From: an uncultured Candidatus Saccharibacteria bacterium
Lineage (GTDB): Bacteria > Patescibacteriota > Minisyncoccia > 2-02-FULL-40-12 > GWA2-44-9
NCBI GenBank assembly: GCA_964356795.1
Contig: CAYHIK010000004.1
Coordinates: 2,743 to 66,742, forward strand
Direction: 5' to 3'
DNA length: 64,000 nt
In this document: one piece after another, positions 26,791 to 61,706 of the stretch
Position numbering within the stretch: position 1 is the stretch's first letter
Layout of the letters: each line of letters begins with the position of its first letter
Notes under the pieces: model-generated
The model's database searches: none
The model's input: the letters and a program-made list of their open reading frames with translations, nothing else
Told to the model about the DNA's origin: nothing
Position numbers and translations under genes: made by a program

Positions 26791-27609
26791 TTATCTCAAA
26801 AATCCTTTTCGCTGAATCTCGGACTGTAGCTCTACATCCTCTTTCGGTGCAAGCCTCATAATCTTTGTAGGAGCGATATCTTGAAACAGCTCACGACCCC
26901 GATCTAGGCGAACCTCCTCCGCGCGAAGTTCTGGATCAAGAGCAATCACGTCAGTTAATGCTCCATCTTCATACAATAATGACACACCACGCGGCACCGC
27001 AATACCACTCGGAAGCTCATTATTACGAATTGCATCCGCGAGGACTGCTCGACGATATGTATCCTCCGGCTCAAAGTGGGGAATGTAGCTCCCCTTCAAA
27101 AATCCGAGCGTATTGCGAATAGGCGAAAGCTCAGGACCAAACGAATCCGTAAGACCACCCTCGAACCAACACATCGCCCCCGCACTCTTTCCACTCAATA
27201 CAATCCCCGATTCATACGCCTCTTTGAGCATGGGGCGTAGTCTATGCGTATCCCAAACGGCAAGCATGTTGGCGGTATTCCCACCGCCAACATAAATGAG
27301 GTCATGCGACAAGATAAATGCTCGCATGCGCTCTTCGGAAAGCTGTCGATCAAAGAGAGAGAGCACGTTTACATGGCAATGACGCTCCATGTTTGCATAC
27401 TTCATCCCTAAAATATCATCGAGACTCTCCCCGCTTGCAGTCGGCACATATAAGACCTCTGGATATGGGACACCCGTACGCGACAAAAGCCAATTATTGA
27501 ACTCCCGCGAATCAGCATTCTCAAGCCCCATCCCACTCCCGACACAGATAATTTGTTGCTTAGCTAATGTGCTCATGTGGTTTTCTGTAGCGTCCAGTCG
27601 CCGTGCCAT
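26791..27609 (-). CDS. Peptidase family S51 (peptidase E/cyanophycinase-like)
   Basis: YVGGGNTANML and the nucleophile motif SGKSAGAM; His in YIPHFEPE. Confidence 0.65.
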   Translation of the reverse strand: MARRLDATENHMSTLAKQQIICVGSGMGLENADSREFNNWLLSRTGVPYPEVLYVPTASGESLDDILGMKYANMERHCHVNVLSLFDRQLSEERMRAFILSHDLIYVGGGNTANMLAVWDTHRLRPMLKEAYESGIVLSGKSAGAMCWFEGGLTDSFGPELSPIRNTLGFLKGSYIPHFEPEDTYRRAVLADAIRNNELPSGIAVPRGVSLLYEDGALTDVIALDPELRAEEVRLDRGRELFQDIAPTKIMRLAPKEDVELQSEIQRKGFLR

Positions 27610-30600
27610 GTCTCATTGCCATCAGCATCCATCTCCCAAATAACGACCGCTGGCGTATCCCCCCGCTTGTCATGTACCATATAGCTATTGAAAGTCGTCT
27701 CGTTGGTTCGCACCAATCCCATAGGACGACAATGTTTAAATCGTGCGCGATATACATCATTGATCGGTTGTCGATTTGTAGACGCCATGCCACGCATGTC
27801 CATCGGAATTGCTACGACGGCATGCGAATCCCACAGAGTAACGCTCCCACCCGCTCGCATGCGCTCCGCCCGCATACGTCGCGCCGTGGCAATCGCCTCC
27901 TTCAGCGAGCTCAACACGAACGCGTCAGCGTCGAGCGTTCGGATAAAGTTTTCCGTTGGATTATTCGCGCGCACCACAAGCACGGGCACTTTTGATTCTT
28001 TAGATTTCGCCATAATTGCGAGCACCGAACCACGAAGCTCCTCGTTGTCCTTACCTCGGTTTGATGCATACACCCACGTTCGTAGATTGGGGTACTCGCC
28101 CTCTGCGATTTCTCGATGCCGTGAAGTGTGGCACGAATCACCTAAATCGCCTGAAAAAATATGGAGCAAGCCAGAAACGGGCACCAGTGAAACTGAAACT
28201 GATTTCACTGGCTGACTAGTTCCGACCCCAAGGATGTCATCGAGCTTTCGCTTGAGAGCAGTAATCGGCAGATAGCCAGTACGCGGATCGAGTTTTTGAA
28301 GCCACACCTGATTAAGCTTCTCGAGTAGTGCAGGAGAGAATGGCGTGTGCTCAGTATGGTCTGGGTCCTGGAAGTGGTGCAAATAATGCTCTTCGATATA
28401 ATCCTTAGAAAGCGCGTGGACGCCGTATATCCTTTCTGCTGTTGGTTCATCATCCCTCCAAAGCGCGAGCGTCGCTACAACATCTCCCCAATTTGTACTC
28501 TCCATAGTCTGTAACGCATGAACCGCGGAAAGCGCGCGAATGTCCTTAGCGAGCGAGATGGGTCCGTCGAGCTCAGCCATTGACTCTAAGGCTGCGACGA
28601 TATCGGGCTCTCCTTGCTCGCTTTCATACAACACATCCAGAATCGTTTGGATGTTTTTACTCATCTCCTTGAGCGCACCAGCCTGCCGCTCGATACCGAT
28701 ACGGCCTCTTGGATTCTGCAACGCCTTTGACTTCCGAATAAGCTCCTGTTTCTTTTTTAGGTCCCCCTCGTCACGAATAGCTATCTCGATTTCTTCAGGG
28801 GCACTCGCAAGAAGCGAACGGAGTGTGTTTTCTTCATCAAGAAGACGATGATGCGCGGAATCAAGTAAATCCAAAACAGAAAATAACCCGGCATCACCCC
28901 ATGCTTCTGCAAGTGGCTCGTACACATCGACCACCTCTTGGCTTACCAGGAATGCAGAGAGCGCCTCTGACTGGTCTTTGGATTTCTCCCGCGCTTGGCG
29001 TGCGAGCGGAATATCCATGCTCGCCTCCTGGAATCCGATGGGAAGCTTCGCGAGCGCCGGACGAAGGCGCACCGTTTTGCGATACGCATCAAGAATATCG
29101 GACACGCTATCGCCTCGCTCAAACTGTGTCGTCCCCTTGAGCCGACTGAACAATTCCTCCCCAAGTGAAGACTCGATACCCCCAGGAATCTCGTCCTTCA
29201 ACATCGTAGACTGCATGGTTCCGAGCGATTTATATACAGCATTAAACAGCTCAAGTGAGTCCTTGAAGCGCCATCCTCCGCTTTTTCGCCTCGCTTCTAT
29301 CCCAAATTCGGAGCACTCCTCCAGAGACTCCCCAGAGAGCGAGTCGAGATTGCGATGCCTTTGACAGTCTGCGTAGAATCGAAAGAGTGCGGGGGTGTTG
29401 CGCATCCCAACTAATTCCACAAACGATACGAGCATCGCCATATCGTCCTTGTTCTCCACACGAACCACGCCACTGCTGGTGAGCTCCTTCAGGAGTGGTA
29501 TGAATTCAGAAGTCCACGGATCATTCGCAACATTCTGAGCAAAGCCCTGTATGTTCGCTATCCTAGAAAGGGCGCCAAAGAACGGATCATGCTGAATGGC
29601 GCTCCGTATCAAAGACATCTCATCGGGGTACTCGCGCGACAACGTATCGTCGTTGAGATTTTTTAATATAGCGACCGCCTGCCCTGGATCGCTATATGCC
29701 GATTTTAGAACCGCCGAGCCGAGGCTATCAATGCGAGCTCGAGATCCGAGCAGTTTCAGTTTTCCAAACGCAGAAGCAAGGAGATTACTCTTAGTACCTG
29801 GGAGTTCGTACGCGATAATCTTCCCTACAATGCAAGTCATGAGCTCTGGCGAAGGGACGTATTGGTCTACTTCTAACAGGCCCGCGATGTGGCCATCGCC
29901 ACGCGCGCGGTCAAATAGTTCAGTCGCAAGAGTCTCGAACTCTGCGTCTGTCGAGGCAAACCCAGCGGAAACCACGTTATGAAATGCCTTGAGGCGCTCA
30001 AGGGTGGGGTAGAATCCCAACGTACGCATACCCCGTATCAGCGCGATATATGCATGCTGCATTTCACCGCTGTGCTTTGTAAAGTCAGGGCGAATGGAAG
30101 TCACGCGCCGTACGACATCTATCGGATTCGGCATACTCGAGAAACGACATAGAGAAATAATAAGCTCCACAACCTGTTTCTCGCTAAAGTCTGACTCGAT
30201 GCCAGAAACATCCCGAAGCGCAATGAGGTCTTGCGGTGTGTTGGGTATTTCTTTTCGAATGCCCTCACGAAGCCGTGAATATCGCTCATGAATCGCATCT
30301 TTGTAGAGAGAAAAATCAGGCTCGATACCCGTAAGTTCTGCGGCTAATCGAATGACGTCAGTCATCCGTAGATTCGGCGAGCGAAGCCATGTCTTATAAC
30401 GCGCATGCATCTTTGACGCTTCGATACGCGGGCGGATAGCAGTTGCCTCAAGGAGCCGCACTGCAGCATCGAGCTGTAGTTGTCGTCCGTAATGGTACTG
30501 ATACGTAAGCCCCTCCGCCTGAAGAATAATGTCCTCGTATTGCTGTTGAATTGCTGGCTCAATAGCTTCGAAATTCGGCTCAATGCCCGTAATTTCCTGG

Positions 30601-32132
30601 AGTAAATGAATGCCTTTTCGCGAGCGCTCAGTTATATCAAGCGCGAGTTTCATATACGCGCTCTGGAGAAGTTCTGGCGCGATTTCGTATCGCACACCTG
30701 TCAGATGCTTCACATTCAACGCGAATTGAAGTGCTGGTGGATCAAATGATTCGTCGCTGAGCAAGGAGTAATACATGTCCTGAATCTGCATCGAGAAATC
30801 TGTGTACTCCATACGCACGCCCGACATACGCTCCAATTGCGGAATAATGGAGAGGACCTCTCGGCGGTTCTCATGTGAATCCCCTCGACACGCACTTAGG
30901 GTCAATTCCCAATACGCGAAGCGCATAAGCGACGGCAAGCGTTCCGTTTCTGTGTAGCGCTCCAATGCATTCATGACCCGCTTCATCGACGCGAGCATCG
31001 CTGAGTGTTGATGCTCGCGCCCACTGAAATAGCGCCAGCCACCTATAAATTCAATCATGGAAGCTTGCACCCCTGGATGCAGAAAGGATTCGGCATCACC
31101 TGCTTGAATTCCCGCAAAATCAAGAGGAGTGATTTCTGTGCCACCATACGGCGAGCGAGCAGCCTTATTAAGATACGAAATGTGATGATCAATCTTCGCA
31201 ATTTCTTGCTGGTCAGATGCACGCACCCGGAGAGCGCGGAATAGACGCACGAAGTCAGTCGCAATCGCATGCGTCCTATACCGATCCCCGTACTCACCTA
31301 CTTTGAGTTTATATGCGTGAAATAATTCTAGGATTGCATCGGCATCATGCGCTGATCCGATTCGCGTGAAGATAGTCCTAAACACCTCAGACGATGCAGG
31401 GCGAGCCATGACAGTATCGAGCGAAAAAAGATTCATAATACGCCCTGCGAGCGCAGGGGTTGCCATGTAGGGAACCATCCTGATGCACGTAGTGAGCCGG
31501 TCCACGTCCACGGCACCGGATTGAGCATATGCGATCACGTGCTCGAGTGCTTGAGCTCCGTTATCACGAAGTCGACGACGAAGCTCGACAATATACTCCG
31601 CTTCCCGATTCTCGCGTTCATGTCCCGCCCCGTAGTACTCATCACTGGGATCAATATAGGGGGGATCGTAGAAAGCCCGGTGGTCCACGCACGCCTGTAA
31701 GAGCTTGGCAACGCGCTCTCCCTCCTCTTCTTGCGTAGCGCGCTCAAGCTTTGCAGTGTCTCGACGACGCAAAGCCTCGCGCCCCCACTCAAAAACATCG
31801 AAATCATGTATATCATCGGGTACAAGCTCCGCAATAAGCTGACCCTCCATGGGATTGTCTGGATCGGTATCGGTAAGAATGACGACGCGATACGCTACAC
31901 CCTCCTTAAGTGCTTCGCCACCTGGAGGCGGTGTGTACGTAATAATCTTCCGGTCAGGCGCGCTACTCTTGTATATGACGCCTCCGTGCTTTGTGGTAAA
32001 TCGTCGGAATGTAACGTCAAGAAACACTCGCCCCTCCAGCCCAAGAGGGCTCACCTCATGTGATGGTTGAGATTCTGGCTGATGTTCTGTATGAGAGTGC
32101 CCCTGCGCGCCTTCTGTCATGCCTATTGACAA
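27573..32132 (-). CDS. Very large (1519 aa) hypothetical protein with internal about 60-aa tandem repeats
   Basis: Uninterrupted 4.56-kb ORF. Four repeats carry the [LV][TS]GIEP[DN]F motif at about aa 520-760; no P-loop, nuclease or TM motif seen; its 3' end overlaps the S51 peptidase gene by 37 bp. Confidence 0.6.
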   Translation of the reverse strand: MSIGMTEGAQGHSHTEHQPESQPSHEVSPLGLEGRVFLDVTFRRFTTKHGGVIYKSSAPDRKIITYTPPPGGEALKEGVAYRVVILTDTDPDNPMEGQLIAELVPDDIHDFDVFEWGREALRRRDTAKLERATQEEEGERVAKLLQACVDHRAFYDPPYIDPSDEYYGAGHERENREAEYIVELRRRLRDNGAQALEHVIAYAQSGAVDVDRLTTCIRMVPYMATPALAGRIMNLFSLDTVMARPASSEVFRTIFTRIGSAHDADAILELFHAYKLKVGEYGDRYRTHAIATDFVRLFRALRVRASDQQEIAKIDHHISYLNKAARSPYGGTEITPLDFAGIQAGDAESFLHPGVQASMIEFIGGWRYFSGREHQHSAMLASMKRVMNALERYTETERLPSLMRFAYWELTLSACRGDSHENRREVLSIIPQLERMSGVRMEYTDFSMQIQDMYYSLLSDESFDPPALQFALNVKHLTGVRYEIAPELLQSAYMKLALDITERSRKGIHLLQEITGIEPNFEAIEPAIQQQYEDIILQAEGLTYQYHYGRQLQLDAAVRLLEATAIRPRIEASKMHARYKTWLRSPNLRMTDVIRLAAELTGIEPDFSLYKDAIHERYSRLREGIRKEIPNTPQDLIALRDVSGIESDFSEKQVVELIISLCRFSSMPNPIDVVRRVTSIRPDFTKHSGEMQHAYIALIRGMRTLGFYPTLERLKAFHNVVSAGFASTDAEFETLATELFDRARGDGHIAGLLEVDQYVPSPELMTCIVGKIIAYELPGTKSNLLASAFGKLKLLGSRARIDSLGSAVLKSAYSDPGQAVAILKNLNDDTLSREYPDEMSLIRSAIQHDPFFGALSRIANIQGFAQNVANDPWTSEFIPLLKELTSSGVVRVENKDDMAMLVSFVELVGMRNTPALFRFYADCQRHRNLDSLSGESLEECSEFGIEARRKSGGWRFKDSLELFNAVYKSLGTMQSTMLKDEIPGGIESSLGEELFSRLKGTTQFERGDSVSDILDAYRKTVRLRPALAKLPIGFQEASMDIPLARQAREKSKDQSEALSAFLVSQEVVDVYEPLAEAWGDAGLFSVLDLLDSAHHRLLDEENTLRSLLASAPEEIEIAIRDEGDLKKKQELIRKSKALQNPRGRIGIERQAGALKEMSKNIQTILDVLYESEQGEPDIVAALESMAELDGPISLAKDIRALSAVHALQTMESTNWGDVVATLALWRDDEPTAERIYGVHALSKDYIEEHYLHHFQDPDHTEHTPFSPALLEKLNQVWLQKLDPRTGYLPITALKRKLDDILGVGTSQPVKSVSVSLVPVSGLLHIFSGDLGDSCHTSRHREIAEGEYPNLRTWVYASNRGKDNEELRGSVLAIMAKSKESKVPVLVVRANNPTENFIRTLDADAFVLSSLKEAIATARRMRAERMRAGGSVTLWDSHAVVAIPMDMRGMASTNRQPINDVYRARFKHCRPMGLVRTNETTFNSYMVHDKRGDTPAVVIWEMDADGNETWHGDWTLQKTT

Positions 32133-32239
32133 TTATGCTGTTATATGCTATACTTAATCCAGAATTTAGTGTAATTTCCGTACCGAGTCGCCGGGGGCAA
32201 AGCTACCTAGCCATGGAAGCGCCAACGGATCTCGGCCTA

Positions 32240-32263
32240 CCCCTCTTATATATAAGAGGGGTA
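32240..32263. terminator. Perfect 24-bp palindrome (bidirectional terminator-like)
   Basis: ACCCCTCTTATATATAAGAGGGGT. Confidence 0.5.
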
Positions 32264-32334
32264 TTTTGTATCTTGTCCTCCCCGAATCTAGATTAAGTAT
32301 ACCAAACAAAAAGAAAAACTACATTTGATGAATA

Positions 32335-32360
32335 AACCCCCGAGCATGCTCGGGGGTTTG
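32335..32360 (-). terminator. Rho-independent terminator of the PurA-like operon
   Basis: aaaccccc-gagcatgctc-gggggttt; the minus strand is followed by a T-rich tract. Confidence 0.6.
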
Positions 32361-32384: not shown

Positions 32385-33698
32385 CTACACACAGAAGCGT
32401 TTTTCATCTGCCGACGGACCCGCTGACTCGATACGAATCGGCACGCCCACTATGTGCGCCAACTCGTCCAGATACGCGGGCATATGTGACGCTGCATCCT
32501 CGTACACGGGCGCGACTCGCGTGAGGAGTGACGTCAGGTTCGATTGGTATTCGAGATCGGTGAGCTCCTGCTTCGGCGCAAGGTCAGTCTCCCGCCCCCA
32601 ATCAGGAATGTCGTAGGCAGTACAAATCTTCCGCGATGGCACAGATGCGAATCGATCCGTGTTCGTGATGACCAGCGCATCGATACCACGACTGACGGCA
32701 ATCGCATATCGCGCGAGCACTGCATCGAACCATCCAACCCTGAACCCACGTTGCCACTGATTCGATGTGTTACACGGGTCAGGAAGTTGATCGGTAAGGT
32801 GTTCACACTCCGTCGGGAATGGCCCAGCCCCGTGACGCGTGAAGTACGCGCGGAGCAGTCCATACTTCAGAACGTCGCCCGCGTAGCCGACCTCAGACAA
32901 GAGCGTCATCGCATTCGCCGGCGTTGTCGTGCTCCACGTCGTGTACGGATGAAATCCGTACCATTCATCGAGCAACACCCCCTGCGCACCCTCGAACACG
33001 AGATTCTGCCGTTCCGCAATTGTTCCAAGGTATGAGCCAGGAACAATCGTAAACGGCGATGCGTATTCATGCATCAACCGAGCAATCCGATCGGGAGCAT
33101 CGGCATCTTCGAATGCCTCGAGCGCATACTCCAATCGCTTATCCTCGACACCAACACCGACGATCTTCAGCCGGTCGCGAATCGCATACAGCTTCTCACG
33201 AAGCACCACTGGATACTTGAGATCACGCGCATGAATAGCAGTATCGGGAAATGCGATGCTATCGGCCATTGTCTCGCCGATACCCATCCCGCAACTGCCA
33301 TGGCGTCCATTGCCACGCAACGATTCACGAATCTGATTTGCATATGCGTGGAACGGCGTAATCACGAGCGCGCCTTCATCAATCGTCAGCCGCTCGAACA
33401 CGTTCGAGCATCCCGCCTCCTGCAACTCATGCGCCTCACTCACCAGCCCTGATGGCTCGACGAGCATGAACCGCGAAAGATGCGTCCGCACACTAGGCAT
33501 AAATGTCCCGCTCCCGAACTGCGAGAACACGTGCTCCCGACCGTCAGGCGTCACTACGCGATGCGCAGCCTGCGCACCTCCGTTGAATCGCACAACAGTG
33601 CCAACAGCGTGCATGCGACACAGGAAGTCAACAATCGTACCCTTTCCCGCATCTCCGAATCCAAGGTCAACGACAATCGTTGCCGTGTGATTATTCAT
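32385..33698 (-). CDS. Adenylosuccinate synthetase (PurA)-family protein, divergent
   Basis: GFGDAGKGTIVD (PurA QWGDEGKGK), RFNGGAQAAHRV (GGHNAGHT), FEGAQGVLLD, YTTWSTTT (SSNTT), GAGPFPTE. The IMP-loop GTTGRGIGP is replaced by GSCGMGIGE. Confidence 0.7.
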   Translation of the reverse strand: MNNHTATIVVDLGFGDAGKGTIVDFLCRMHAVGTVVRFNGGAQAAHRVVTPDGREHVFSQFGSGTFMPSVRTHLSRFMLVEPSGLVSEAHELQEAGCSNVFERLTIDEGALVITPFHAYANQIRESLRGNGRHGSCGMGIGETMADSIAFPDTAIHARDLKYPVVLREKLYAIRDRLKIVGVGVEDKRLEYALEAFEDADAPDRIARLMHEYASPFTIVPGSYLGTIAERQNLVFEGAQGVLLDEWYGFHPYTTWSTTTPANAMTLLSEVGYAGDVLKYGLLRAYFTRHGAGPFPTECEHLTDQLPDPCNTSNQWQRGFRVGWFDAVLARYAIAVSRGIDALVITNTDRFASVPSRKICTAYDIPDWGRETDLAPKQELTDLEYQSNLTSLLTRVAPVYEDAASHMPAYLDELAHIVGVPIRIESAGPSADEKRFCV

Positions 33699-33770
33699 AC
33701 GCGCCTCCGCGTGCAGAAAAAAAGAAATGGCGGTGCCCGAGTACCATATCGGACACCGCCAGAGAGCTAC

Positions 33771-34784
33771 CTAGATACGACTGACACCGCGACCCTTGCG
33801 GGAGTGCGCGGCAGGGAGAGTTCCCTTCGCCGTCTTCGCCGGCAGACCACCTGCGCCGATGTGAACCAGCGCGTTCTTCACGGTGGTAGCGTCGCGACCC
33901 GTGAGGCCGATGTCGCCAACGACCGCGTCGACGTCACGAGCGCTCTCGATCGAGTGAATGATGCCTGCGATGACTTCGCAGACGAGCGAGGAATCCTCCA
34001 CTCTCACGAAGCGTTCACCCAGCAACTTCTTCCACCGATTCTGGATGGTCGCATCGTTCGGATAGCCCCCATCGACTGAGAAGAGGTGGAACACTTCCCA
34101 CTGCTCCTTCACCCGTTCGAGGAGTGCCTCGACTGTTTCGTCTTTCTGAGCCGTCACACCGAAGATATCCTTCACTTCGCTTCGGGTGATCTTCGGCCAG
34201 AGCGATTCGTCGCCCATGGTGAAGAGGTACCCCTTCTTACCGCGCTTCTCGAACGAGTCGGTCGCCGTGTGGTACGCAGCGAAACGCCACGCCAGTCCGT
34301 ACGACTCCTGAACCTGACCACCACCACCGCCCTCGACGATGATGTTGCGCAGCTGTTCGTCGAATCGGTTGTCCGACTCGAACTGACCAACCTGGAACGG
34401 GTACTGGTCGCAATGCGAGTCGCCGATGGCGCCGACCAAGATCTGCGGATCCTTGATGCCAGCCTTCTCGCGAATGACGTCCATCAACTTGACCAACTTC
34501 GTCTGCAGGGTACGAGGGATTGCTCCCATCGAACCCGTCACGTCGAAGAGGATAGCGATGGGCAACGATTCGGGATGCTCGTCGCTGTCGCGACTCTCAC
34601 GAATCGGCTTGCCCGCCACCGGACTGGTCGGTCCAGCCACCTTCTTCGGGTCCAAGTCCGGATGGATTCCGTGCGCGACACCCGCGCGAATTCTCGCATC
34701 GTGGCCAAAGTCGGGCACACCGGTACTTCTCCGCGTCGTCGTTGCGCGCGCGTATGCGTCCGAGTCGAAGCTTCCACCGCCCAT
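33771..34784 (-). CDS. von Willebrand factor type A (vWA) domain protein
   Basis: MIDAS motif LPIAILFDVTGSMG (DxSxS) plus downstream Thr/Asp ligand positions; low-complexity N-terminus. Confidence 0.7.
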   Translation of the reverse strand: MGGGSFDSDAYARATTTRRSTGVPDFGHDARIRAGVAHGIHPDLDPKKVAGPTSPVAGKPIRESRDSDEHPESLPIAILFDVTGSMGAIPRTLQTKLVKLMDVIREKAGIKDPQILVGAIGDSHCDQYPFQVGQFESDNRFDEQLRNIIVEGGGGGQVQESYGLAWRFAAYHTATDSFEKRGKKGYLFTMGDESLWPKITRSEVKDIFGVTAQKDETVEALLERVKEQWEVFHLFSVDGGYPNDATIQNRWKKLLGERFVRVEDSSLVCEVIAGIIHSIESARDVDAVVGDIGLTGRDATTVKNALVHIGAGGLPAKTAKGTLPAAHSRKGRGVSRI

Positions 34785-34799
34785 GACACTACTCCTTGA

Positions 34800-35954
34800 T
34801 TATGATCCCGCGCTCGAATCCGGCACAACCATCGGCCGATATTCTCGCTTCCACTCCGTCCGGACGATGCGGGTAAACTCGTCCAGAAGGTCTCGCCCAT
34901 CAGTGGGCCTTTTCTGTGAATCTTCGTTGACGCATCGGATGATGCAGTCCGCCATGGCCGCAGGCGTACTCCGAGGAACCGTATTACGCTGCGTGTCGCC
35001 ACCCAAGAGCCATATCAGCGTCTTCCCGACCATGAACAAATCGGTGTGATGACTCGGCGACTTCTTATCGATAACTTCCGGCGGATACCAATCCTTCCAT
35101 CGATCGATCATCATGGTGATACGATCACCAGAATCACGATCAACCGCATGGAGCCAACCAATGTGCTGCGGTTCCCGTGTGATGGGGTGTACGAGCACAT
35201 GATCGGGAGTAATCGCCCCGTGAATGGCGTGTATCATGCGTGCGGCAATTGCCTGTGCAATCACGCGTCGCCCAACCCACGCAACTTCATTTGGCTCCAA
35301 TGACCTACTCAGTCGAGTACGAATATCCGCGAGTGACAGCATCCCATCGTAGGGAGTCATCACGATCGCTCGATATCGCCGACCGCCATCAACCACGCTG
35401 AACGCATCTCGAATCGGTGGAAGGTAGGGCAACAATTTCGGAAACTTCTCAAACCGCTTCAGGATCATAAGCTCATGATCGAACAGCGGATTGAACGTAG
35501 GATCGGCCGAAAGCTTGATGAGTACCGGCCCCGACGCACCCGTAATCTGTGTCGCACGGTAGAGCACCGAGAAGTCGCCCGAGTGATACGGAGTATGCTC
35601 GAGCCGATACGTGGCACTCGCAGACTGGAGAATTCCACCATCGTTCACGGCTGCACGTGATGCCGTCGGGGCAGCACCGACCCTAAACGGAGTAGCGTAT
35701 ACTCCATTATCCAGAGCGGCCTCCGCGGACTTCCATAATTCGTTCAGGCGCTGGAATACTTCTCCCGCGAGAGCGGCTGCATGAGCCGGAGCAACATCGG
35801 GGTGCACCTGCCGAGCAAGATAGCTAAAACTCTTACGGAGTTCGCGCTTTCGCTCGAGCACATCAACTCCAGGCACGGCACCGAAAATTGCTTCGAATGT
35901 CGTTGCCGTTCGCAGTACCAACGATACAGCCTCGATATCACTTACGGACGACAT
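34800..35954 (-). CDS. J-domain protein fused to a protein-kinase-like (probable pseudokinase) domain
   Basis: J-domain HPD motif in YLARQVHPDVAP; kinase-like VLIKL (beta3 Lys), catalytic-loop-like IHGAITPDHVLV (Asp to Ala) and WYPPE (APE-like). Confidence 0.5.
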   Translation of the reverse strand: MSSVSDIEAVSLVLRTATTFEAIFGAVPGVDVLERKRELRKSFSYLARQVHPDVAPAHAAALAGEVFQRLNELWKSAEAALDNGVYATPFRVGAAPTASRAAVNDGGILQSASATYRLEHTPYHSGDFSVLYRATQITGASGPVLIKLSADPTFNPLFDHELMILKRFEKFPKLLPYLPPIRDAFSVVDGGRRYRAIVMTPYDGMLSLADIRTRLSRSLEPNEVAWVGRRVIAQAIAARMIHAIHGAITPDHVLVHPITREPQHIGWLHAVDRDSGDRITMMIDRWKDWYPPEVIDKKSPSHHTDLFMVGKTLIWLLGGDTQRNTVPRSTPAAMADCIIRCVNEDSQKRPTDGRDLLDEFTRIVRTEWKREYRPMVVPDSSAGS

Positions 35955-36030
35955 AGCTCCCTCCGCTTTTGTGAGCGTGTCCCTTCAATTTTCAACGTCC
36001 TTGCCGCCACTCTACACCCTTCTTATTTAG

Positions 36031-36076
36031 TGTCAATAGTACACCTAACACCGTGTGCATAAGTGTACATTTGACA
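36031..36076. promoter_or_regulatory. Candidate operator: 14-bp inverted repeat TGTCAATAGTACAC-N18-GTGTACATTTGACA in the divergent promoter region
   Basis: 12 of 14 arm positions are complementary; lies between the divergent NrtR-like gene and the J-domain/vWA/PurA-like operon. Confidence 0.3.
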
Positions 36077-36106
36077 AGAAGTACCGAGGTGCGGTAGAGT
36101 TATAAT

Positions 36107-36802
36107 ATGCATCAAAAAGGCAATTTAGTCAAGAATCTTCGCTTTGCCACCATCGCTACCGACGTGGCCCTTTTTACGATTCATAATCAAGAATTATTGG
36201 TTCGCGTGATTCCCGTTCACCGCCCACCTCACTATCATAATGCTCGTGGCCTCCCCGGCGGGCTCATTCTCCCCCATGAAACAGCAGAAAATGCCGCACG
36301 AAGACTCCTCATCGAAAAAGGAGGCATCACATCGTCAGCGGTATACCTAGAGCAACTCGCGACATTCAGCGCACTCGATCGCGATCCACGCGGACGCGTT
36401 ATCGCAGTTGCACACATCGGACTTGTGTCATGGAGCGAACTCACCGATGCGGAGCGAAGTACAAGTGATGCCGCATGGGTTACCGCGCGCGAAGCGCGCA
36501 ACCTCGCCTATGACCATGATGAGATGCTCACGATGGCGCACGCACGACTCGCGTCTCGCATCGGATACTCCACGATTATCCGTGGCCTCATACCATCCGA
36601 ATTCACGCTCACCGAACTCGAGCAAGCCTATGAGTGCGTTCTTGGACGCCCCATGGACAAGCGCAATTTCCGGAAAAAAATATTGAAACTCGATATTATT
36701 CGACCCCTTCACCGCACCCGCCAAGGCGCGAAAGCACGTCCAGCGCAACTCTATGCATTCGCGAAGAACTCGATTCAGATGATCGATCTCTTCCGCACAT
36801 AA
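36107..36802 (+). CDS. Nudix hydrolase domain fused to a C-terminal winged-helix domain (NrtR-like transcriptional regulator)
   Basis: Nudix box GLPGGLILPHETAENAARRLLIEKGG; C-terminal about 80 aa basic helix-rich region as in NrtR. Confidence 0.6.
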   Translation: MHQKGNLVKNLRFATIATDVALFTIHNQELLVRVIPVHRPPHYHNARGLPGGLILPHETAENAARRLLIEKGGITSSAVYLEQLATFSALDRDPRGRVIAVAHIGLVSWSELTDAERSTSDAAWVTAREARNLAYDHDEMLTMAHARLASRIGYSTIIRGLIPSEFTLTELEQAYECVLGRPMDKRNFRKKILKLDIIRPLHRTRQGAKARPAQLYAFAKNSIQMIDLFRT

Positions 36803-47628: not shown

Positions 47629-48366
47629 TTAGCGGCGCTTCAATTCTTCGCGATAATCTTCGAGAGCCTTCTTGAGCGCTGGTTTTGCTTTTTTGATTGC
47701 CTTGTTGCCAATGAGTGCGGCGGTGATACTCCCGATAGCATCGAGAGCTCGCCCATTGTTGGCGTAGAGCTTCGCTGCCTGCATTTCGACATCAATGAGT
47801 GCCTGTGCACCAGTCCCAACTTCTGCCAGTTGAGCAGACTTCCAATCCATAATCATGGCATGCGCTTCCATGGGCAGGCGACCCGGTTGTCGCAGTGCCT
47901 CCCCGATGCGCTCGACGGTGGGGATTTCTGGTGCTGATTGCTTGGGAAGCAGCTGCTCAAGCTTGTCTGCGATTGCTTGGAGACGGTCTACTTCTGCGGT
48001 GTTGCCCGCATCCTTTTCCTCCCATAGATTTTCATTCAAAAATTCAAGCTGTTCTTCGATGAGACTTGGTTCGGTATATCCTGCGTTGAAAAACAAAAGC
48101 GCTCGCCACGCAGGGTATTCGTTGCGTTCATTCTGAGGGAGATGATCAACTGATTCGTCGAGCTCTGCCAGAACATTCTGAAATTGCGACGCCCGCTCAT
48201 CTTCTGTGAATTCCGGCTCTTCAATTCCGAGCGCTTTGAGCTTCCGAAGCTCTTCACCTGCGCGCTCAAAAGTAGCAGGGGCGTGCTCTTGACTATCCTG
48301 ACTTGGCTCGGGAGTTGATTCAGGAGGTTGTTCAGACATAGCGAGAGTATACCACACTTCACTCAC
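47629..48366 (-). CDS. Acidic helical hypothetical protein
   Basis: 245 aa, Glu/Asp-rich N-terminus; ATGA-coupled to the upstream SelO-like gene. Confidence 0.35.
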   Translation of the reverse strand: MSEVWYTLAMSEQPPESTPEPSQDSQEHAPATFERAGEELRKLKALGIEEPEFTEDERASQFQNVLAELDESVDHLPQNERNEYPAWRALLFFNAGYTEPSLIEEQLEFLNENLWEEKDAGNTAEVDRLQAIADKLEQLLPKQSAPEIPTVERIGEALRQPGRLPMEAHAMIMDWKSAQLAEVGTGAQALIDVEMQAAKLYANNGRALDAIGSITAALIGNKAIKKAKPALKKALEDYREELKRR

Positions 48367-51300
48367 GCTCGGTCGCCGGATAGGCGCTCGGCTAGCTGTG
48401 ATGCGAGAGAACCACGTTCATCGTCCGATTCGATATAATCACTCATATTCTCGAGACAGTTTCGGAGAAGCTGTGGATGCTCATGAAGTAACTGGGAGAA
48501 GTCTCGCTTACGAATAAAGAGCATGCTCACCTCATTATTCGCGATGACACTACAGACGGCACCCTGACCTGTGATTATGGACCGCTCTCCAAATAGACCG
48601 CGCTCCAATGGTTTGTCATATAATTCCAAGGGACTCACCCGCATATCGGCAATATCCTGACGAAGAGTAACGGAACCACGCACAAGCAGAAATACTCCCG
48701 CGGTCTGCTGGCCTTGTTGAATAATCGACTCGCCCGAAGTAAACGCAACGGGTACTGCCTTATCGGCGAGAAATAGACGCACCTCCTCGGGATTAATCTC
48801 CCGAAAGATACCCAATCCACGCACACGATCAAAAACACCGGTCGTTCGTTGGAGGAGAATACTCCTGATGATATTTTCCATCCTCGGATACATCGAAGAG
48901 AGTTCTTGCAAATTATCCCGAGTAATTCGAAGCAATCTGGCAGGGGTTTCTGTAGCCACGGTTGCCGTCCGCTTGTGTCCCGCCTCCAATACGCTCGCCT
49001 CCCCGAGAATGGCGCCCCTGTTGCTGATTTTATTGATGACACGGCCATCAACCACTACCCTGCATGTACCCTGCACAAGTATATAGAGTGCGTCGGCGTT
49101 CTGACCTTGCGTCATCACCTCTTTCCCCTGCTCAACATCAACCGTGGTGAGAAGTTTCGCTATCGTTCGAAGCCTTGCTTTCGATGGACGCAAGTACCTA
49201 AAGAGTGGCACCTCTGCATACCGGAACTCCCTACCAGTCGGGTAGCGAGGCAGTTGGCAGAGCTGATCAATCTCCACCTCCAGCGTCTCGGCGTCAATCT
49301 TGCCAGACCGATACTCTTCGACCCAATAGCGTAATTTTCCGTTAAGCTCTGACATCGTCGGAAAGTTCTGATTCGCGGCAATCAGTCGATCGCACCAATA
49401 ATCCTTTGGTGGCAACATCCCTTGTGCATCAATGCTATCAAGGAAGGAGAAGAGTTGCAGGACGAACGCTTCGGCATCCATAGTAAATGCCGGCAACCCC
49501 TCTCTATCGACGACCGCATGATCTCTGATGAAGTACTCGCCCTGATTGACCTCGCCCTTAGACGTGAGTTGTGGCTCATAATGAATATGCGCACGAGCCG
49601 AAGCAAACGCCTTCTTTCTCTTGAGGATGCTCATTGCCTTCAGTATTCGCGCCGGGGTGTGTAAGAGTTTCGAGAGTCGTCGGAATAGGGCGGACATATC
49701 TACCAAAGCCGGATCGTCATCATCGGATATTTCATCGTATAGATTCATTGAAACCCTCTTGGGACTAATCTTTTTAGAGAGCGATTCGAACTGATTGGTA
49801 AGCGATAGGACCACCTCTCCTTGGCGCGCCATCAACTGCTCGATATATACCTCTTCGATGCCCAGTAATTCGAGCAATAAACAGGACAAGTGCGTGCGTC
49901 GGAGAATAGAGAATTTTTCACTAAGTCCAGCAGCTGAAATCTTCTTCACAGTCGCAAGCTGTTCGAGCACATTCAGAAAACCAAAGCCCTCATATCCAAA
50001 GTAATTATGATAGTACTTTGTTGAGGTCGTGTTGTACGGCCCTCGGTACGGGACAAACGAAACCGTCTCGAGATCAATCATGCGCCCGTCCAACGAGTAG
50101 TTTCCAGTCGACCAAGCCCCTAACATAAATCGATAGGCAAAAAATTGAGCATCAAGCTTTGCATACGCAGCAACCACCGTATCGAAATCGATATTGATAG
50201 TAGGATCAAACTCAACGTGACTCGGCCTGTCCAGCGCGCCATCGTCAGCGCGAACGAGGAGCGAGAGCGGGACGGGGTACGGATTCCATTTGAATTCTTC
50301 TTGAGCCTTCAATGCAATAACAACGGGATGCTCGACAACGCTCTTGGTGAAATGGCCAATCCATCGCGACAGAATCAATCTCCGCAGAGATCCGATGAGC
50401 TCCATCTTACCAGTGCTATGACTGGGGGTGGCGCTGGTACACAGCGTCGTCTTGCCCACGCCCATCACGTTAAACTTCTTACCGTAGTAGACGGCACGGC
50501 CAGACCCCTGGTTTCCGCTGAGCCCGATGTTTGTCATGTCCTGCTGGCGATCGGCGTATGTATTGATTGACACGTCTGCTGATGCAGAGTCCGCAAGAAC
50601 AACGGCAAAACGAGATGCATGCGCGTGCGCATCACCCGAATACCCCATCCGTTCAAAGTACTCGCGATCGGCATATACCACCTCGTACTCCTCGGGCTCC
50701 AGCCTTCGTGTATGCTGGCGGACAAACACCCGCTCTCCAAGCCTCTGTACCGCACTGGGTTGCGCAGTAAGATCCGTACCCAAGTCAATATATGGCATCA
50801 TCGCAATAATCCACCACGCAGGATCACCCTTCTGTCCAAATGATCGCTCTTGGTATTGATCGCGCAGGTAGCTGTCGTAGTAATCACGGAGTAGCTCAAC
50901 AATGATAAACCCGCTGTTTTGTCGTTTTGATAGCTTCTTCAGTGTAAGCTTTCGGCTCGGATACTGACTAGCGATGAACAATGTTGGTTTTAGTTCGCGT
51001 ATGAAATCTTTCCAGATGACAAGTGTTGCCAAAATGCTGTGCACATAATCGCGGTCGCTAATACTGTCGTACACTTGGCGAATGCGCTCCGACAAGCCTG
51101 TCCCGTCACCATGTTCCTGCGTAAAAAAAGTTGGATCTTTTCCCTGCATAGCCAACGCGATAGCCATATCGTCGAATGGATGATTTGCGAGCAGCGCATC
51201 AACCCGAGGGGGAAGGTCCGTACCAATACGAACATCCTGAAGTAATTTCGTCACACTCCGGATGGTTGCCTTGGGCAAAATACGCTCATAGAGCGCTTTT

Positions 51301-51503
51301 GTATGCTGGGCGGCGAGAGCGTCCGGCTCAATAAGAATAACCGTCCCCTTGAAACCAATCATTGCCAACGCGTCTCCTATCTTTTTCTCATACCCAGGCG
51401 CGACTTCAACAACAACCCCGTCGAGCGGAATCGGGTTCTTCTCTAGGAGACTCCTCCAGATGTATGAAACCGGTTTTACTGGTGACAGAGTTTCATGCGC
51501 CAT
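48363..51503 (-). CDS. Large protein: N-terminal SelO/YdiU-like kinase-fold region fused to two C-terminal cyclic-nucleotide-binding (CAP-family) domains
   Basis: SelO-like GSGRAVYYGKKFNVMGVGKTTLCT...GKMELIGSLRRLILSRWI and GNYSLDGRMIDLETVSF; cNMP-binding GEASVLEAGHKRTATVATETPARLLRI and GERSIITGQGAVCSVIANNEVSMLFI. Confidence 0.5.
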   Translation of the reverse strand: MAHETLSPVKPVSYIWRSLLEKNPIPLDGVVVEVAPGYEKKIGDALAMIGFKGTVILIEPDALAAQHTKALYERILPKATIRSVTKLLQDVRIGTDLPPRVDALLANHPFDDMAIALAMQGKDPTFFTQEHGDGTGLSERIRQVYDSISDRDYVHSILATLVIWKDFIRELKPTLFIASQYPSRKLTLKKLSKRQNSGFIIVELLRDYYDSYLRDQYQERSFGQKGDPAWWIIAMMPYIDLGTDLTAQPSAVQRLGERVFVRQHTRRLEPEEYEVVYADREYFERMGYSGDAHAHASRFAVVLADSASADVSINTYADRQQDMTNIGLSGNQGSGRAVYYGKKFNVMGVGKTTLCTSATPSHSTGKMELIGSLRRLILSRWIGHFTKSVVEHPVVIALKAQEEFKWNPYPVPLSLLVRADDGALDRPSHVEFDPTINIDFDTVVAAYAKLDAQFFAYRFMLGAWSTGNYSLDGRMIDLETVSFVPYRGPYNTTSTKYYHNYFGYEGFGFLNVLEQLATVKKISAAGLSEKFSILRRTHLSCLLLELLGIEEVYIEQLMARQGEVVLSLTNQFESLSKKISPKRVSMNLYDEISDDDDPALVDMSALFRRLSKLLHTPARILKAMSILKRKKAFASARAHIHYEPQLTSKGEVNQGEYFIRDHAVVDREGLPAFTMDAEAFVLQLFSFLDSIDAQGMLPPKDYWCDRLIAANQNFPTMSELNGKLRYWVEEYRSGKIDAETLEVEIDQLCQLPRYPTGREFRYAEVPLFRYLRPSKARLRTIAKLLTTVDVEQGKEVMTQGQNADALYILVQGTCRVVVDGRVINKISNRGAILGEASVLEAGHKRTATVATETPARLLRITRDNLQELSSMYPRMENIIRSILLQRTTGVFDRVRGLGIFREINPEEVRLFLADKAVPVAFTSGESIIQQGQQTAGVFLLVRGSVTLRQDIADMRVSPLELYDKPLERGLFGERSIITGQGAVCSVIANNEVSMLFIRKRDFSQLLHEHPQLLRNCLENMSDYIESDDERGSLASQLAERLSGDRA

Positions 51504-60914: not shown

Positions 60915-61706
60915 TTACTTCGGAGAGATAGACAGGAGTGCGGGATTGAGAACCCCACCCGACTCGTTGGCTTTTTCGCCCTCGTTTCCGAGCTGAGTCT
61001 TGACGTTGTGCCAGCGGCGAAGCTGTTCGCCGTACTTCCAGCACTGCGAGAGCATTGAGACGGCGCATCCGTACATGAAGCCCGTGATGCCCTCGAGGTC
61101 AGCCTCGGAAGATGCTGCGTCCGCAACATCTTCCAGTCTCTTCCCTTGAGCCATCTCGATCTGCATGAGACGCGCCCAACGTTCCGCGTAAGCGAGCACC
61201 GCGCTGCCGTAGCCGTCCTGGTTGCTTTCTCTGAACTTGAGCCAGCCGCGCCAGCCACTCGCGCTCTCAATTGCAAGGCCTGGATCGTTGAGCAGCTTGG
61301 CCTCGACGGCTTCGCGGTGGGCACGAGCCTTCTTCTCGTACTCCGCCCCTCGCCTCTGTCGCTTGCGCTCGTTCTCGGCTTCGATGCGAGCGTCGTTCGC
61401 CTTCTCTGTGTCTGTGAGAGCGGGCTTCGGATGGGGACCAACACTCTTGCCGATGTAGCCACTCAACGCTCGCGACCAGTCGCGGTAGATGAGCTCGGGA
61501 TTGGAGTCCTCGCGCACCGACACGACCACATCGTTGAACTCGAACTTGATGACCCGCTTCTTCTTCGCCGAGAGCGCGATTGCTTCGGCGATGGTCGGCC
61601 CGATACTTGAGCCGCACATCACGTCGTACACGCCACCCTTCTCTCGCCACAGATTCTCCACGTTCTCCTCCCTTTCTCTTTGCTTCTCAGAACTTGGTTG
61701 CCCCAT
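60915..61706 (-). CDS. Hypothetical protein; N-terminal domain paralogous to 51669-52037, basic coiled-coil middle
   Basis: Start set at MGQPSSEKQ (8 bp after the upstream stop); the longer ORF in the track overlaps the 61714-62229 gene. Confidence 0.4.
   Translation of the reverse strand: MGQPSSEKQREREENVENLWREKGGVYDVMCGSSIGPTIAEAIALSAKKKRVIKFEFNDVVVSVREDSNPELIYRDWSRALSGYIGKSVGPHPKPALTDTEKANDARIEAENERKRQRRGAEYEKKARAHREAVEAKLLNDPGLAIESASGWRGWLKFRESNQDGYGSAVLAYAERWARLMQIEMAQGKRLEDVADAASSEADLEGITGFMYGCAVSMLSQCWKYGEQLRRWHNVKTQLGNEGEKANESGGVLNPALLSISPK

Follow-up and report, generated by a model that had tools for sequence, protein, structure and literature searches.

A mobile gene cassette pairing a PurA-family enzyme of probably altered specificity with a vWA protein in Candidatus Saccharibacteria, actinomycetes and large phages

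Adenylosuccinate synthetase (AdSS; PurA, Pfam family PF00709) uses inosine monophosphate (IMP), aspartate and GTP, and its Asp13/His41/Gln224 machinery phosphorylates the purine 6-oxo group. A described departure from this housekeeping role is found in PurZ and PurZ0, the 2-aminoadenylosuccinate synthetases of Z-genome phages, where a single change to a PurA paralogue was enough to alter the chemistry of phage DNA. Other described systems bear on the remaining genes considered here: NrtR, an ADP-ribose-responsive repressor of NAD metabolism, and Bacteroides AraR; the TerY-P triad and ArnA/ArnB/ArnC, in which a vWA protein with a metal ion-dependent adhesion site (MIDAS) is encoded beside a Hanks-fold protein; and GAK/auxilin-type proteins and Rki of phage RB43, in which a J-domain is fused to, or acts with, a kinase-fold module and Hsp70 is directed to a specific client. 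A further likeness, in gene context, comes from a survey of the Lmac_3114 family in Legionella, which reported PurA-like genes in operons with DarT-like ADP-ribosyltransferases (ARTs), AAA and NUDIX proteins (PMC12522546). Here we analyse a locus that encodes a PurA-like enzyme, a vWA protein, a J-domain/kinase-fold protein and a Nudix-winged helix-turn-helix (wHTH) regulator, in 64,000 nucleotides of DNA from an uncultured Candidatus Saccharibacteria bacterium (GenBank assembly GCA_964356795.1, contig CAYHIK010000004.1, positions 2,743 to 66,742; hereafter the window), a member of the candidate phyla radiation (CPR).

Open reading frame (ORF) calling recovered all four genes of a preliminary description of this DNA with the coordinates, lengths and strands given there: the PurA-like gene (32385-33698, minus strand, 437 aa), the vWA gene (33771-34784, minus strand, 337 aa), the J-domain/kinase-fold gene (34800-35954, minus strand, 384 aa) and, divergent from these three, the regulator gene (36107-36802, plus strand, 231 aa). 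The minus-strand genes are as tightly spaced as had been described, with measured gaps of 15 nt (J-domain/kinase-fold gene to vWA gene) and 72 nt (vWA gene to PurA-like gene) in place of the 16 and 73 first given. The four proteins were assigned to families with Pfam, the NCBIfam equivalogs and PADLOC v2. We suggest that the enzyme is a PurA-family paralogue with a new specificity under an NrtR-type regulator, and that no counterpart of the complete module has been described; a full-text literature search found no published description of the cassette or of the activity of this enzyme clade. In existing phage annotation its parts are labelled 'PurA-like adenylosuccinate synthetase', 'kinase' and 'hypothetical protein', the 'PurA-like' label standing in a genome announcement.

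The PurA-like clade and the cassette that carries it

As the preliminary description had proposed, the 437-aa protein is an adenylosuccinate synthetase homologue: it matches PF00709 (Adenylsucc_synt) over its full length (5.7e-70) and is 30% identical to E. coli PurA (b4177). Its scores against the canonical PurA equivalogs are nonetheless about half of what those models demand (199.7 bits vs. a cut-off of 402 for NF002223; 180 vs. 395.6 for TIGR00184), and its score against the PurZ model is lower still (NF038379, 56.6 bits vs. a cut-off of 300). We aligned 200 members of the clade with E. coli PurA and use E. coli numbering throughout. Essentially all members keep G12-D13, K16, H41, Q224, T239, R272, G274 and D333; the catalytic Asp13, His41 and Gln224, the GTP P-loop and the GTP-specificity residue Asp333 are conserved in 199-200 of the 200 sequences (Asp13 in 199), and the P-loop GDxGKG and the GAGPFPTE loop are also kept. 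These features are shared with the E. coli and H. pylori enzymes and point to a preserved GTP pocket, general base and acid, and 6-oxo-reading Gln.

The recognition half of the pocket has changed, and the changes are uniform across the clade. In H. pylori AdSS, IMP is bound by residues equivalent to D13, N38, G127, T129, T239, V273 and R303 and by the R143 equivalent of the partner subunit, and those corresponding to R303 and R305 hold an anion in the aspartate region (PMC11571797). In the clade, N38 is replaced by Q (199/200), T129 by C (175/200), V273 by H (200/200) and R305 by F (184/200), while R303 is deleted in every sequence and the R143-bearing segment, the dimer arm, is missing from 191 of the 200. 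Around these positions P135 has become E (199/200), S240 has become W, and R131 is M, L or K (M in this protein). Thr300 and Thr301, which we take to contribute to aspartate recognition in E. coli PurA, are W or Y (W in this protein) and Q (200/200), respectively. The IMP 5'-phosphate/ribose ligands and aspartate-site ligands of canonical PurA are thus not retained as a set, and by this alignment all of the aspartate-holding residues and half of the IMP-phosphate-holding ones have been swapped for clade-invariant Gln, His, Trp or Phe. Because the half that has been rebuilt carries invariant uncharged or aromatic residues, the pattern indicates a new substrate specificity rather than decay, and the loss of the aspartate-binding residues makes ordinary purine salvage an improbable function. 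Nor is the clade PurZ, since it retains Asp13, whereas phage PurZ has Ser at this position in 100% of sequences (PMC12884076) and keeps the aspartate site; the two paralogues resemble each other in being phage-borne and, probably, in altered substrate choice, but they seem to have departed from PurA in opposite ways and their partner genes differ. We therefore regard the clade as probably neither canonical PurA nor PurZ. The RefSeq/PHROG product name of the Bxz1-type PurA-like genes (gp270; phrog_1211) is '2-aminooxy adenylosuccinate synthetase', and we found no tested activity behind this label in the literature.

The genomic setting of the enzyme is as constrained as its pocket. Scanning cellular genomes with the vWA profile, one genome per species, gave 80 loci, whose neighbours were identified by tblastn and HMM searches (frame-anchored gene extraction was used for the high-GC actinomycete loci, where longest-ORF calling produced antisense and fused artefacts). 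The PurA-like gene lay directly downstream of the vWA gene in every one of these loci that extended past the vWA gene; the Nudix-wHTH gene was present in most of the 80, and the J-domain/kinase-fold gene in ~55. The hosts include Saccharibacteria, Kaiserbacteria, Nocardia, Micromonospora, Rhodococcus erythropolis, Frankia, Kutzneria, Streptacidiphilus and Actinomadura, and plasmid copies occur on megaplasmids of Rhodococcus (including R. jostii RHA1) and Tsukamurella and on plasmids of Agrobacterium vitis and Acetobacter. Among phages, the vWA and PurA-like genes co-occur in the same records of 202 Mycobacterium phages (Bxz1-type, ~155 kb), 10 Rhizobium phages and 6 Vibrio phages, with phage Gizmo, for example, encoding in order a 'ser/thr kinase' (with the J-domain HPD motif), the vWA protein, a small ORF and a 'PurA-like' protein. 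IMG/VR yielded 80 uncultured viral contigs that encode the vWA protein, most of them 100-437 kb long; 76 of these have a PurA-like gene bearing the clade signature, 60 have the J-domain/kinase-fold gene and only 6 the regulator. Overall, the vWA gene partners a PurA-like gene in >95% of informative loci, and the J-domain/kinase-fold gene accompanies the pair in ~75% of loci. The constant core is accordingly the vWA and PurA-like genes, in a cassette that is mobile across phyla, plasmids and phages; it is not specific to Candidatus Saccharibacteria and is most abundant in large phages, and the Nudix-wHTH regulator is almost confined to the cellular copies, having been dropped in phages.

Gene order varies around this core. 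In CPR loci the regulator is divergent; in Micromonospora the order is regulator, J-domain/kinase-fold gene, vWA gene, PurA-like gene, with stop-to-start overlaps; in Nocardia and Rhodococcus the regulator follows the other three, which stand in that same order; and a Nocardia/Kutzneria subgroup has the cassette without the J-domain/kinase-fold gene. Three CPR relatives (PurA-like proteins ~53% identical) share the same four genes in otherwise different flanks, and on some CPR chromosomes the cassette lies within shared flanks (an ABC-F gene), apparently through vertical inheritance. Comparison of synteny in relatives, which the preliminary description had proposed as a check, thus firmly rejects the idea that the vWA and J-domain genes are not co-conserved with the PurA-like gene, and its view of a module holds across phyla, plasmids and phages, the genes being no chance neighbours. 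Two atypical copies were also seen. A variant CPR cassette (locus L003, 1918-5732) has an extra 388-aa gene without a family match, a vWA protein of 479 aa and a kinase-fold protein that scores above the Pfam Pkinase threshold and has LDP for HPD. The Rhodovulum plasmid pRSMBA (4101-7029) carries a decayed cassette, with a NUDIX gene and a vWA homologue mis-annotated as 'TonB-dependent receptor', no PurA-like gene following, and an IS3 transposase nearby.

The vWA protein and the J-domain pseudokinase

The 337-aa partner of the enzyme has the intact MIDAS that had been claimed for it: D81-x-T-x-S85, T173 and D192 are invariant, on a Rossmann-like vWA fold. This fold was assigned by fold search, because sequence profile searches were empty: the protein has no match in Pfam (vWA and TerY models included), NCBIfam or PADLOC, a profile search against PDB sequences returned nothing, and it falls in phrog_2971, whose function label is unknown (3e-73). 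The family comprises 598 clusters at 50% identity (E <= 1e-30). Its conserved motifs here are an invariant Met-Gly-Gly-Gly N-terminus, GGGGQ and KRGKKGY, and the first of these reflects a family-wide pattern, Met-Gly-(small)-(small)-x-(Trp/Tyr/Phe), that extends to CPR, actinomycete, proteobacterial and phage members and is present in nearly all full-length representatives of 150 diverse vWA clusters. The start codon stands immediately 5' of the Gly in 70 of the 72 viral loci that bear the motif, with 8 more loci lacking the motif. No fusion of the vWA domain to the enzyme was found among the family, its long members having either an intein or no identifiable extra domain. As to the inteins, many Bxz1-type mycobacteriophages (e.g. 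MN062707 Grungle and NC_054717 CharlieB) match the vWA gene in two pieces ~750 bp apart, with an annotated 'HNH endonuclease' at that place, and residues 184-274 of a 595-aa family member match Hint/intein models; together these place an intein directly after the MIDAS GDE motif. Inteins usually insert at functionally important positions.

The 384-aa protein was described at the outset as having a DnaJ HPD motif and a kinase-like core, and both were found. Its J-domain spans about residues 25-88, with HPD at 51-53 between predicted helices 32-50 and 57-82, so that the helix II-HPD-helix III hairpin of a J-domain appears complete; HPD is invariant in 25 of 25 CPR homologues and, more widely in the family, is kept by at least 90% of 62 members. 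The Pfam DnaJ match is weak (19.6 bits vs. a cut-off of 27.8), as is the Pfam protein-kinase match, and a search with the family profile finds solved J-domains (E = 4e-5) and bacterial kinases (4e-8). C-terminal to the J-domain is a Hanks-type kinase fold (PHROG 'kinase', 1e-22) in which the β3 Lys (K147) and αC Glu (E161) of the ATP site are invariant in the alignment of 25 homologues, but where the catalytic loop reads HGAITPDH for HRDLKPEN and DFG has become IGW. All 62 members of the family, which come from CPR and actinomycetes as well as a plasmid and a phage, have Ala for the HRD Asp; only some of these lineages retain the Mg-binding Asn and a form of DFG that reads DWC, and CPR and many actinomycetes have lost DFG. 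The protein thus lacks the two Asp residues of an active Hanks-type Ser/Thr kinase. As the catalytic Asp is gone while the nucleotide-binding Lys-Glu pair is invariant, a J-domain pseudokinase that probably still binds nucleotide, and that lacks the canonical catalytic base, is a fair description. Its likeness to GAK/auxilin and to RB43 Rki lies in shared domains: the order is reversed, with the J-domain N-terminal here, the proteins belong to bacteria or phages, and the kinase module is a pseudokinase. In PADLOC it gives weak kinase-domain matches only (mad6, 2e-7; PD-T4-6, 3e-5), and the vWA, PurA-like and regulator proteins have no match in PADLOC v2, so the locus is not a catalogued defence system.

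Regulator, operators and terminators

The divergent gene encodes a Nudix domain followed by a C-terminal winged helix as in NrtR, in agreement with the first assignment (NrtR_WHD, PF21906, 1e-21; AraR_C, 1e-10; NUDIX, PF00293, 8e-9). It shares the NrtR architecture, the divergent and probably autoregulated position of its gene and, as described below, palindromes over promoters, but it differs from NrtR in scoring 129 bits vs. an equivalog cut-off of 400 (NF050029) and in that the genes adjoining it, under the candidate operators, are not NAD genes. The Nudix box is degenerate in this regulator (RLLIEK for REUxEE), as in other CPR and in Nocardia, and intact in Micromonospora and Frankia. In the Micromonospora, Frankia and Streptacidiphilus loci, where the box is intact (GX5EX7RELAEETGL), translation of the regulator gene is coupled to that of the J-pseudokinase gene, and the protein may there combine hydrolase activity with its regulatory role.

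Between the divergent genes, a promoter scan found two sigma-70-like promoters with TTGACA at 36036 (minus strand) and 36071 (plus strand). A 21-bp operator-like palindrome overlaps each -35 hexamer: one (TTAGTGTCAATAGTACACCTA, 36027-36047) covers that of the J-pseudokinase/vWA promoter (36036-36031, minus strand) and the other (TAAGTGTACATTTGACAAGAA, 36060-36080) that of the regulator promoter (36071-36076, plus strand). Searching the whole window for TWAGTGTA-N5-TACACTWA with no more than 3 mismatches returned exactly these 2 matches vs. 0.2 expected. The region had been described as a single 14-bp inverted repeat at 36031-36076; it is better read as two 21-bp palindromes. In five CPR loci with proteins of only ~50% identity, long stretches of the intergenic region around both -35 boxes are the same, and several of these loci have an extra perfect palindrome further downstream (TAAGTGTA-N5-TACACTTA). 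Palindromic operators of ~21 bp at regulated promoters are a mark of the NrtR family, and we regard these as candidate operators; their placement fits a dimeric wHTH repressor that would close both promoters.

Transcription of the minus-strand genes would end at a terminator 3' of the PurA-like gene, which we place at 32334-32359 (CCCCCGAGCATGCTCGGGGG followed by UUUAUU; minus strand; free energy (dG) -19.9, z -4.0) and which had been reported at 32335-32360. What did not survive is the picture of one simple, tight operon, because a second, stronger terminator-like hairpin precedes the PurA-like gene: at 33728-33761 (minus strand), within the 72-nt gap, a 13-bp GC-rich stem is followed by UUUCUUUUUUU (dG -26, z -5.7). 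An equivalent hairpin with a U-tract, of unrelated sequence, is present in 9 of 10 CPR loci, whereas in the actinomycete versions the vWA and PurA-like genes overlap. No promoter was seen by the promoter scan in the ~30 nt between this hairpin and the start codon of the PurA-like gene. The simplest reading of the hairpin is attenuation, by which more J-pseudokinase and vWA protein than enzyme would be made.

A 1519-aa ORF downstream (27573-32132, minus strand; 1484 aa in public contig calls) was considered as a fifth component and rejected, being missing at every other cassette locus; it has no Pfam, NCBIfam or PADLOC match. The spacer between it and the PurA-like gene contains a near-consensus promoter-like site on the plus strand (32126-32154; TTGACA-17-TATACT with an extended TG, 11/12) and a palindromic hairpin (32238-32263, TACCCCTCTTATATATAAGAGGGGTA), and public gene calls place a 78-aa opposite-strand ORF inside it. 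The window looks like the genome of a groundwater member of the Patescibacteria, and its gene content is otherwise typical of CPR as far as its context annotation, which covers part of the 64 kb, extends, and no purB or other purine gene appears in that partial annotation. Elsewhere in the window, the product of ~60915-61503 (minus strand) has a precomputed Pfam match to PF25186 'Tad4', and a 1046-aa protein (48363-51503, minus strand), whose sole recorded domain is cNMP_binding, lies amid a run of small hypothetical genes.

Possible roles of the cassette

The explanation we favour, to which we would give an even chance of being right as a whole, is that of a horizontally mobile cassette with a neofunctionalised PurA-family enzyme and a nucleotide-linked stress or conflict role. 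A repressor dimer would occupy the two 21-bp operators until a nucleotide-type, ADP-ribose-like ligand released it; once derepressed, transcription would serve mainly the J-pseudokinase and vWA genes, and read-through to the enzyme gene would be attenuated. The enzyme would use GTP to activate an IMP-like oxopurine and couple it to an amine other than L-aspartate, acting on, or together with, the vWA protein, and the J-domain would recruit DnaK/Hsp70 to the enzyme/vWA complex. The role is most likely a nucleotide-centred stress response or phage-host conflict, useful to large phages and to cells alike, and not housekeeping AMP synthesis. A conflict role is hinted at by NAD-salvage-type, AbiE toxin and type VI secretion system (T6SS)/MoxR-like neighbours and by the report of PurA-like genes with DarT-like ARTs.

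One could instead suppose that the gene encodes a housekeeping adenylosuccinate synthetase, merely divergent, whose neighbours are regulators or unrelated genes. The full-length PF00709 match, the retained Asp13, His41, Gln224 and Asp333, and the name 'adenylosuccinate synthetase' borne by relatives in the databases all speak for this, as does the reduced nature of CPR genomes together with the absence of a second purA from the 64-kb window. We nevertheless consider it quite unlikely. Its scores are at half the equivalog cut-off; the residues replaced (Arg303, Arg305, Thr300, Thr301, Thr129, the Arg143 region and Asn38) have given way to clade-invariant residues and not to random drift; the enzyme is tied to a vWA gene; and the clade also occurs on plasmids and in phages whose hosts, we assume from general knowledge, have a purA of their own. 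It is as an extra copy on such elements that plain purine salvage becomes unlikely, and the preliminary suggestion of a novel module in place of plain salvage is upheld in this respect, by the co-conserved genes and the remodelled pocket. Its likeness to TerY-P, in which a Ser/Thr kinase would phosphorylate the vWA protein, has failed: the pairing of a vWA/MIDAS protein with a Hanks-fold protein is there, but the TerY-P combination of vWA protein, active kinase and PP2C phosphatase is not, as no locus has a PP2C phosphatase, Ala stands for the HRD Asp in every lineage, CPR and many actinomycetes have no DFG left, neither the vWA nor the TerY models of Pfam recognise the vWA protein, and the constant partner is a PurA-family enzyme beside a degenerate kinase with a J-domain. 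Phospho-signalling of this type is extremely unlikely. The same holds for a route like that of PurZ, leading to a modified purine that would serve as a non-canonical base in the DNA or RNA of phages or cells. PurZ shows that a phage PurA paralogue can change its nucleotide specificity, and the '2-aminooxy adenylosuccinate synthetase' label on phage homologues is suggestive; yet Asp13 is kept in all but one of the 200 sequences and is Ser throughout phage PurZ (PMC12884076), the aspartate site that PurZ retains is destroyed, the PurZ model gives about 57 bits vs. 300, no DatZ, MazZ or DpoZ-type partner occurs in the loci inspected, and the cassette is common in cellular genomes, which together leave such a route scarcely credible.

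Anti-phage defence, or phage counter-defence, tied to depletion of NAD+/ADP-ribose or of adenine nucleotides is a different kind of rival, as it overlaps with the conflict role favoured above rather than excluding it: an ADP-ribose-sensing repressor would induce an enzyme that restores or alters the depleted pool. Besides the NrtR architecture of the regulator and the abundance of the cassette in large phages, one plasmid cassette adjoins an AbiEii toxin gene and another a T6SS VgrG gene and a MoxR-like AAA/DUF5682/DUF4132 cluster; the pseudokinase has its weak matches to the PADLOC mad6 and PD-T4-6 kinases; and in Rhizobium phage RHph_TM30 (locus 1-1239) genes for a phosphoribosyltransferase-like protein and a bifunctional nicotinamide mononucleotide (NMN) adenylyltransferase/NUDIX protein lie ~3 kb upstream of the vWA/PurA-like pair. 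A functional link between these NAD-salvage-type neighbours and the NrtR-type regulator of cellular copies is possible. The Legionella report likewise links a non-housekeeping PurA homologue to NUDIX in a putative conflict or regulatory operon, though the partner there is an ART-like domain and not a vWA protein or J-pseudokinase (PMC12522546). Defence in this specific form is nonetheless unlikely: the two core proteins have no PADLOC match, there is no recognisable toxic effector, the cassette is conserved, apparently vertically, in shared flanks with an ABC-F gene on CPR chromosomes, and the defence-island evidence is anecdotal. A further, bolder proposal concerns chemistry. The enzyme might join C6 of an IMP-type nucleotide to the α-amino group of the N-terminal Gly of the vWA protein, Gly replacing aspartate, to give an N6-linked protein-AMP adduct, with J-pseudokinase and Hsp70 delivering or remodelling the vWA protein. 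Such conjugation would fit the replacement of aspartate-binding Arg and Thr by Trp, Phe, His and Gln, the strict pairing of enzyme and vWA genes, the nearly universal Met-Gly-small-small-x-aromatic N-terminus and the excess of vWA protein over enzyme that the internal terminator would give; as a specific reaction, we think it very unlikely.

It has not escaped our attention that several observations weigh against a mobile cassette with a conflict role. Its substrate, product and ligand are all inferred. CPR bacteria lack de novo purine synthesis, and in them the PurA-like protein could be the only PurA homologue, making adenylosuccinate through a differently built pocket. The unusually high conservation of the vWA protein (58-75% identity across the 119 best-scoring relatives, several CPR lineages included) looks more like that of a core cellular function than of a conflict system, and a conflict role is at odds both with this and with apparently vertical inheritance in CPR. 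The core proteins lack a PADLOC model and no obvious effector is present. Since the -35 hexamers lie inside the palindromes, the promoters themselves may account for some of the conservation seen there. Finally, the J-pseudokinase is dispensable, being lacking in the Nocardia/Kutzneria subgroup and in ~25% of viral copies.

If the mobile cassette with its neofunctionalised enzyme is nonetheless the right description, it would represent, next to PurZ, a second and much more widespread clade of PurA paralogues with a differently rebuilt pocket, whose activity has apparently never been asked about. It reaches >200 cultured phages, many jumbo-phage contigs, soil actinomycetes and CPR bacteria, and tractable systems are at hand in the Bxz1-type phages on M. 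smegmatis and in plasmid pRHL1 of Rhodococcus jostii RHA1. With fixed partners of this kind, a MIDAS protein, a pseudokinase that would recruit Hsp70 and a repressor that would sense nucleotides, the enzyme can be expected to have a new activity, and a nucleotide-vWA adduct, if true, would be a new nucleotide-protein conjugation in jumbo phages, actinomycetes and CPR bacteria. The cassette may also bring to light a new level of nucleotide conflict between phages and their hosts, or a trait central to how CPR bacteria live.

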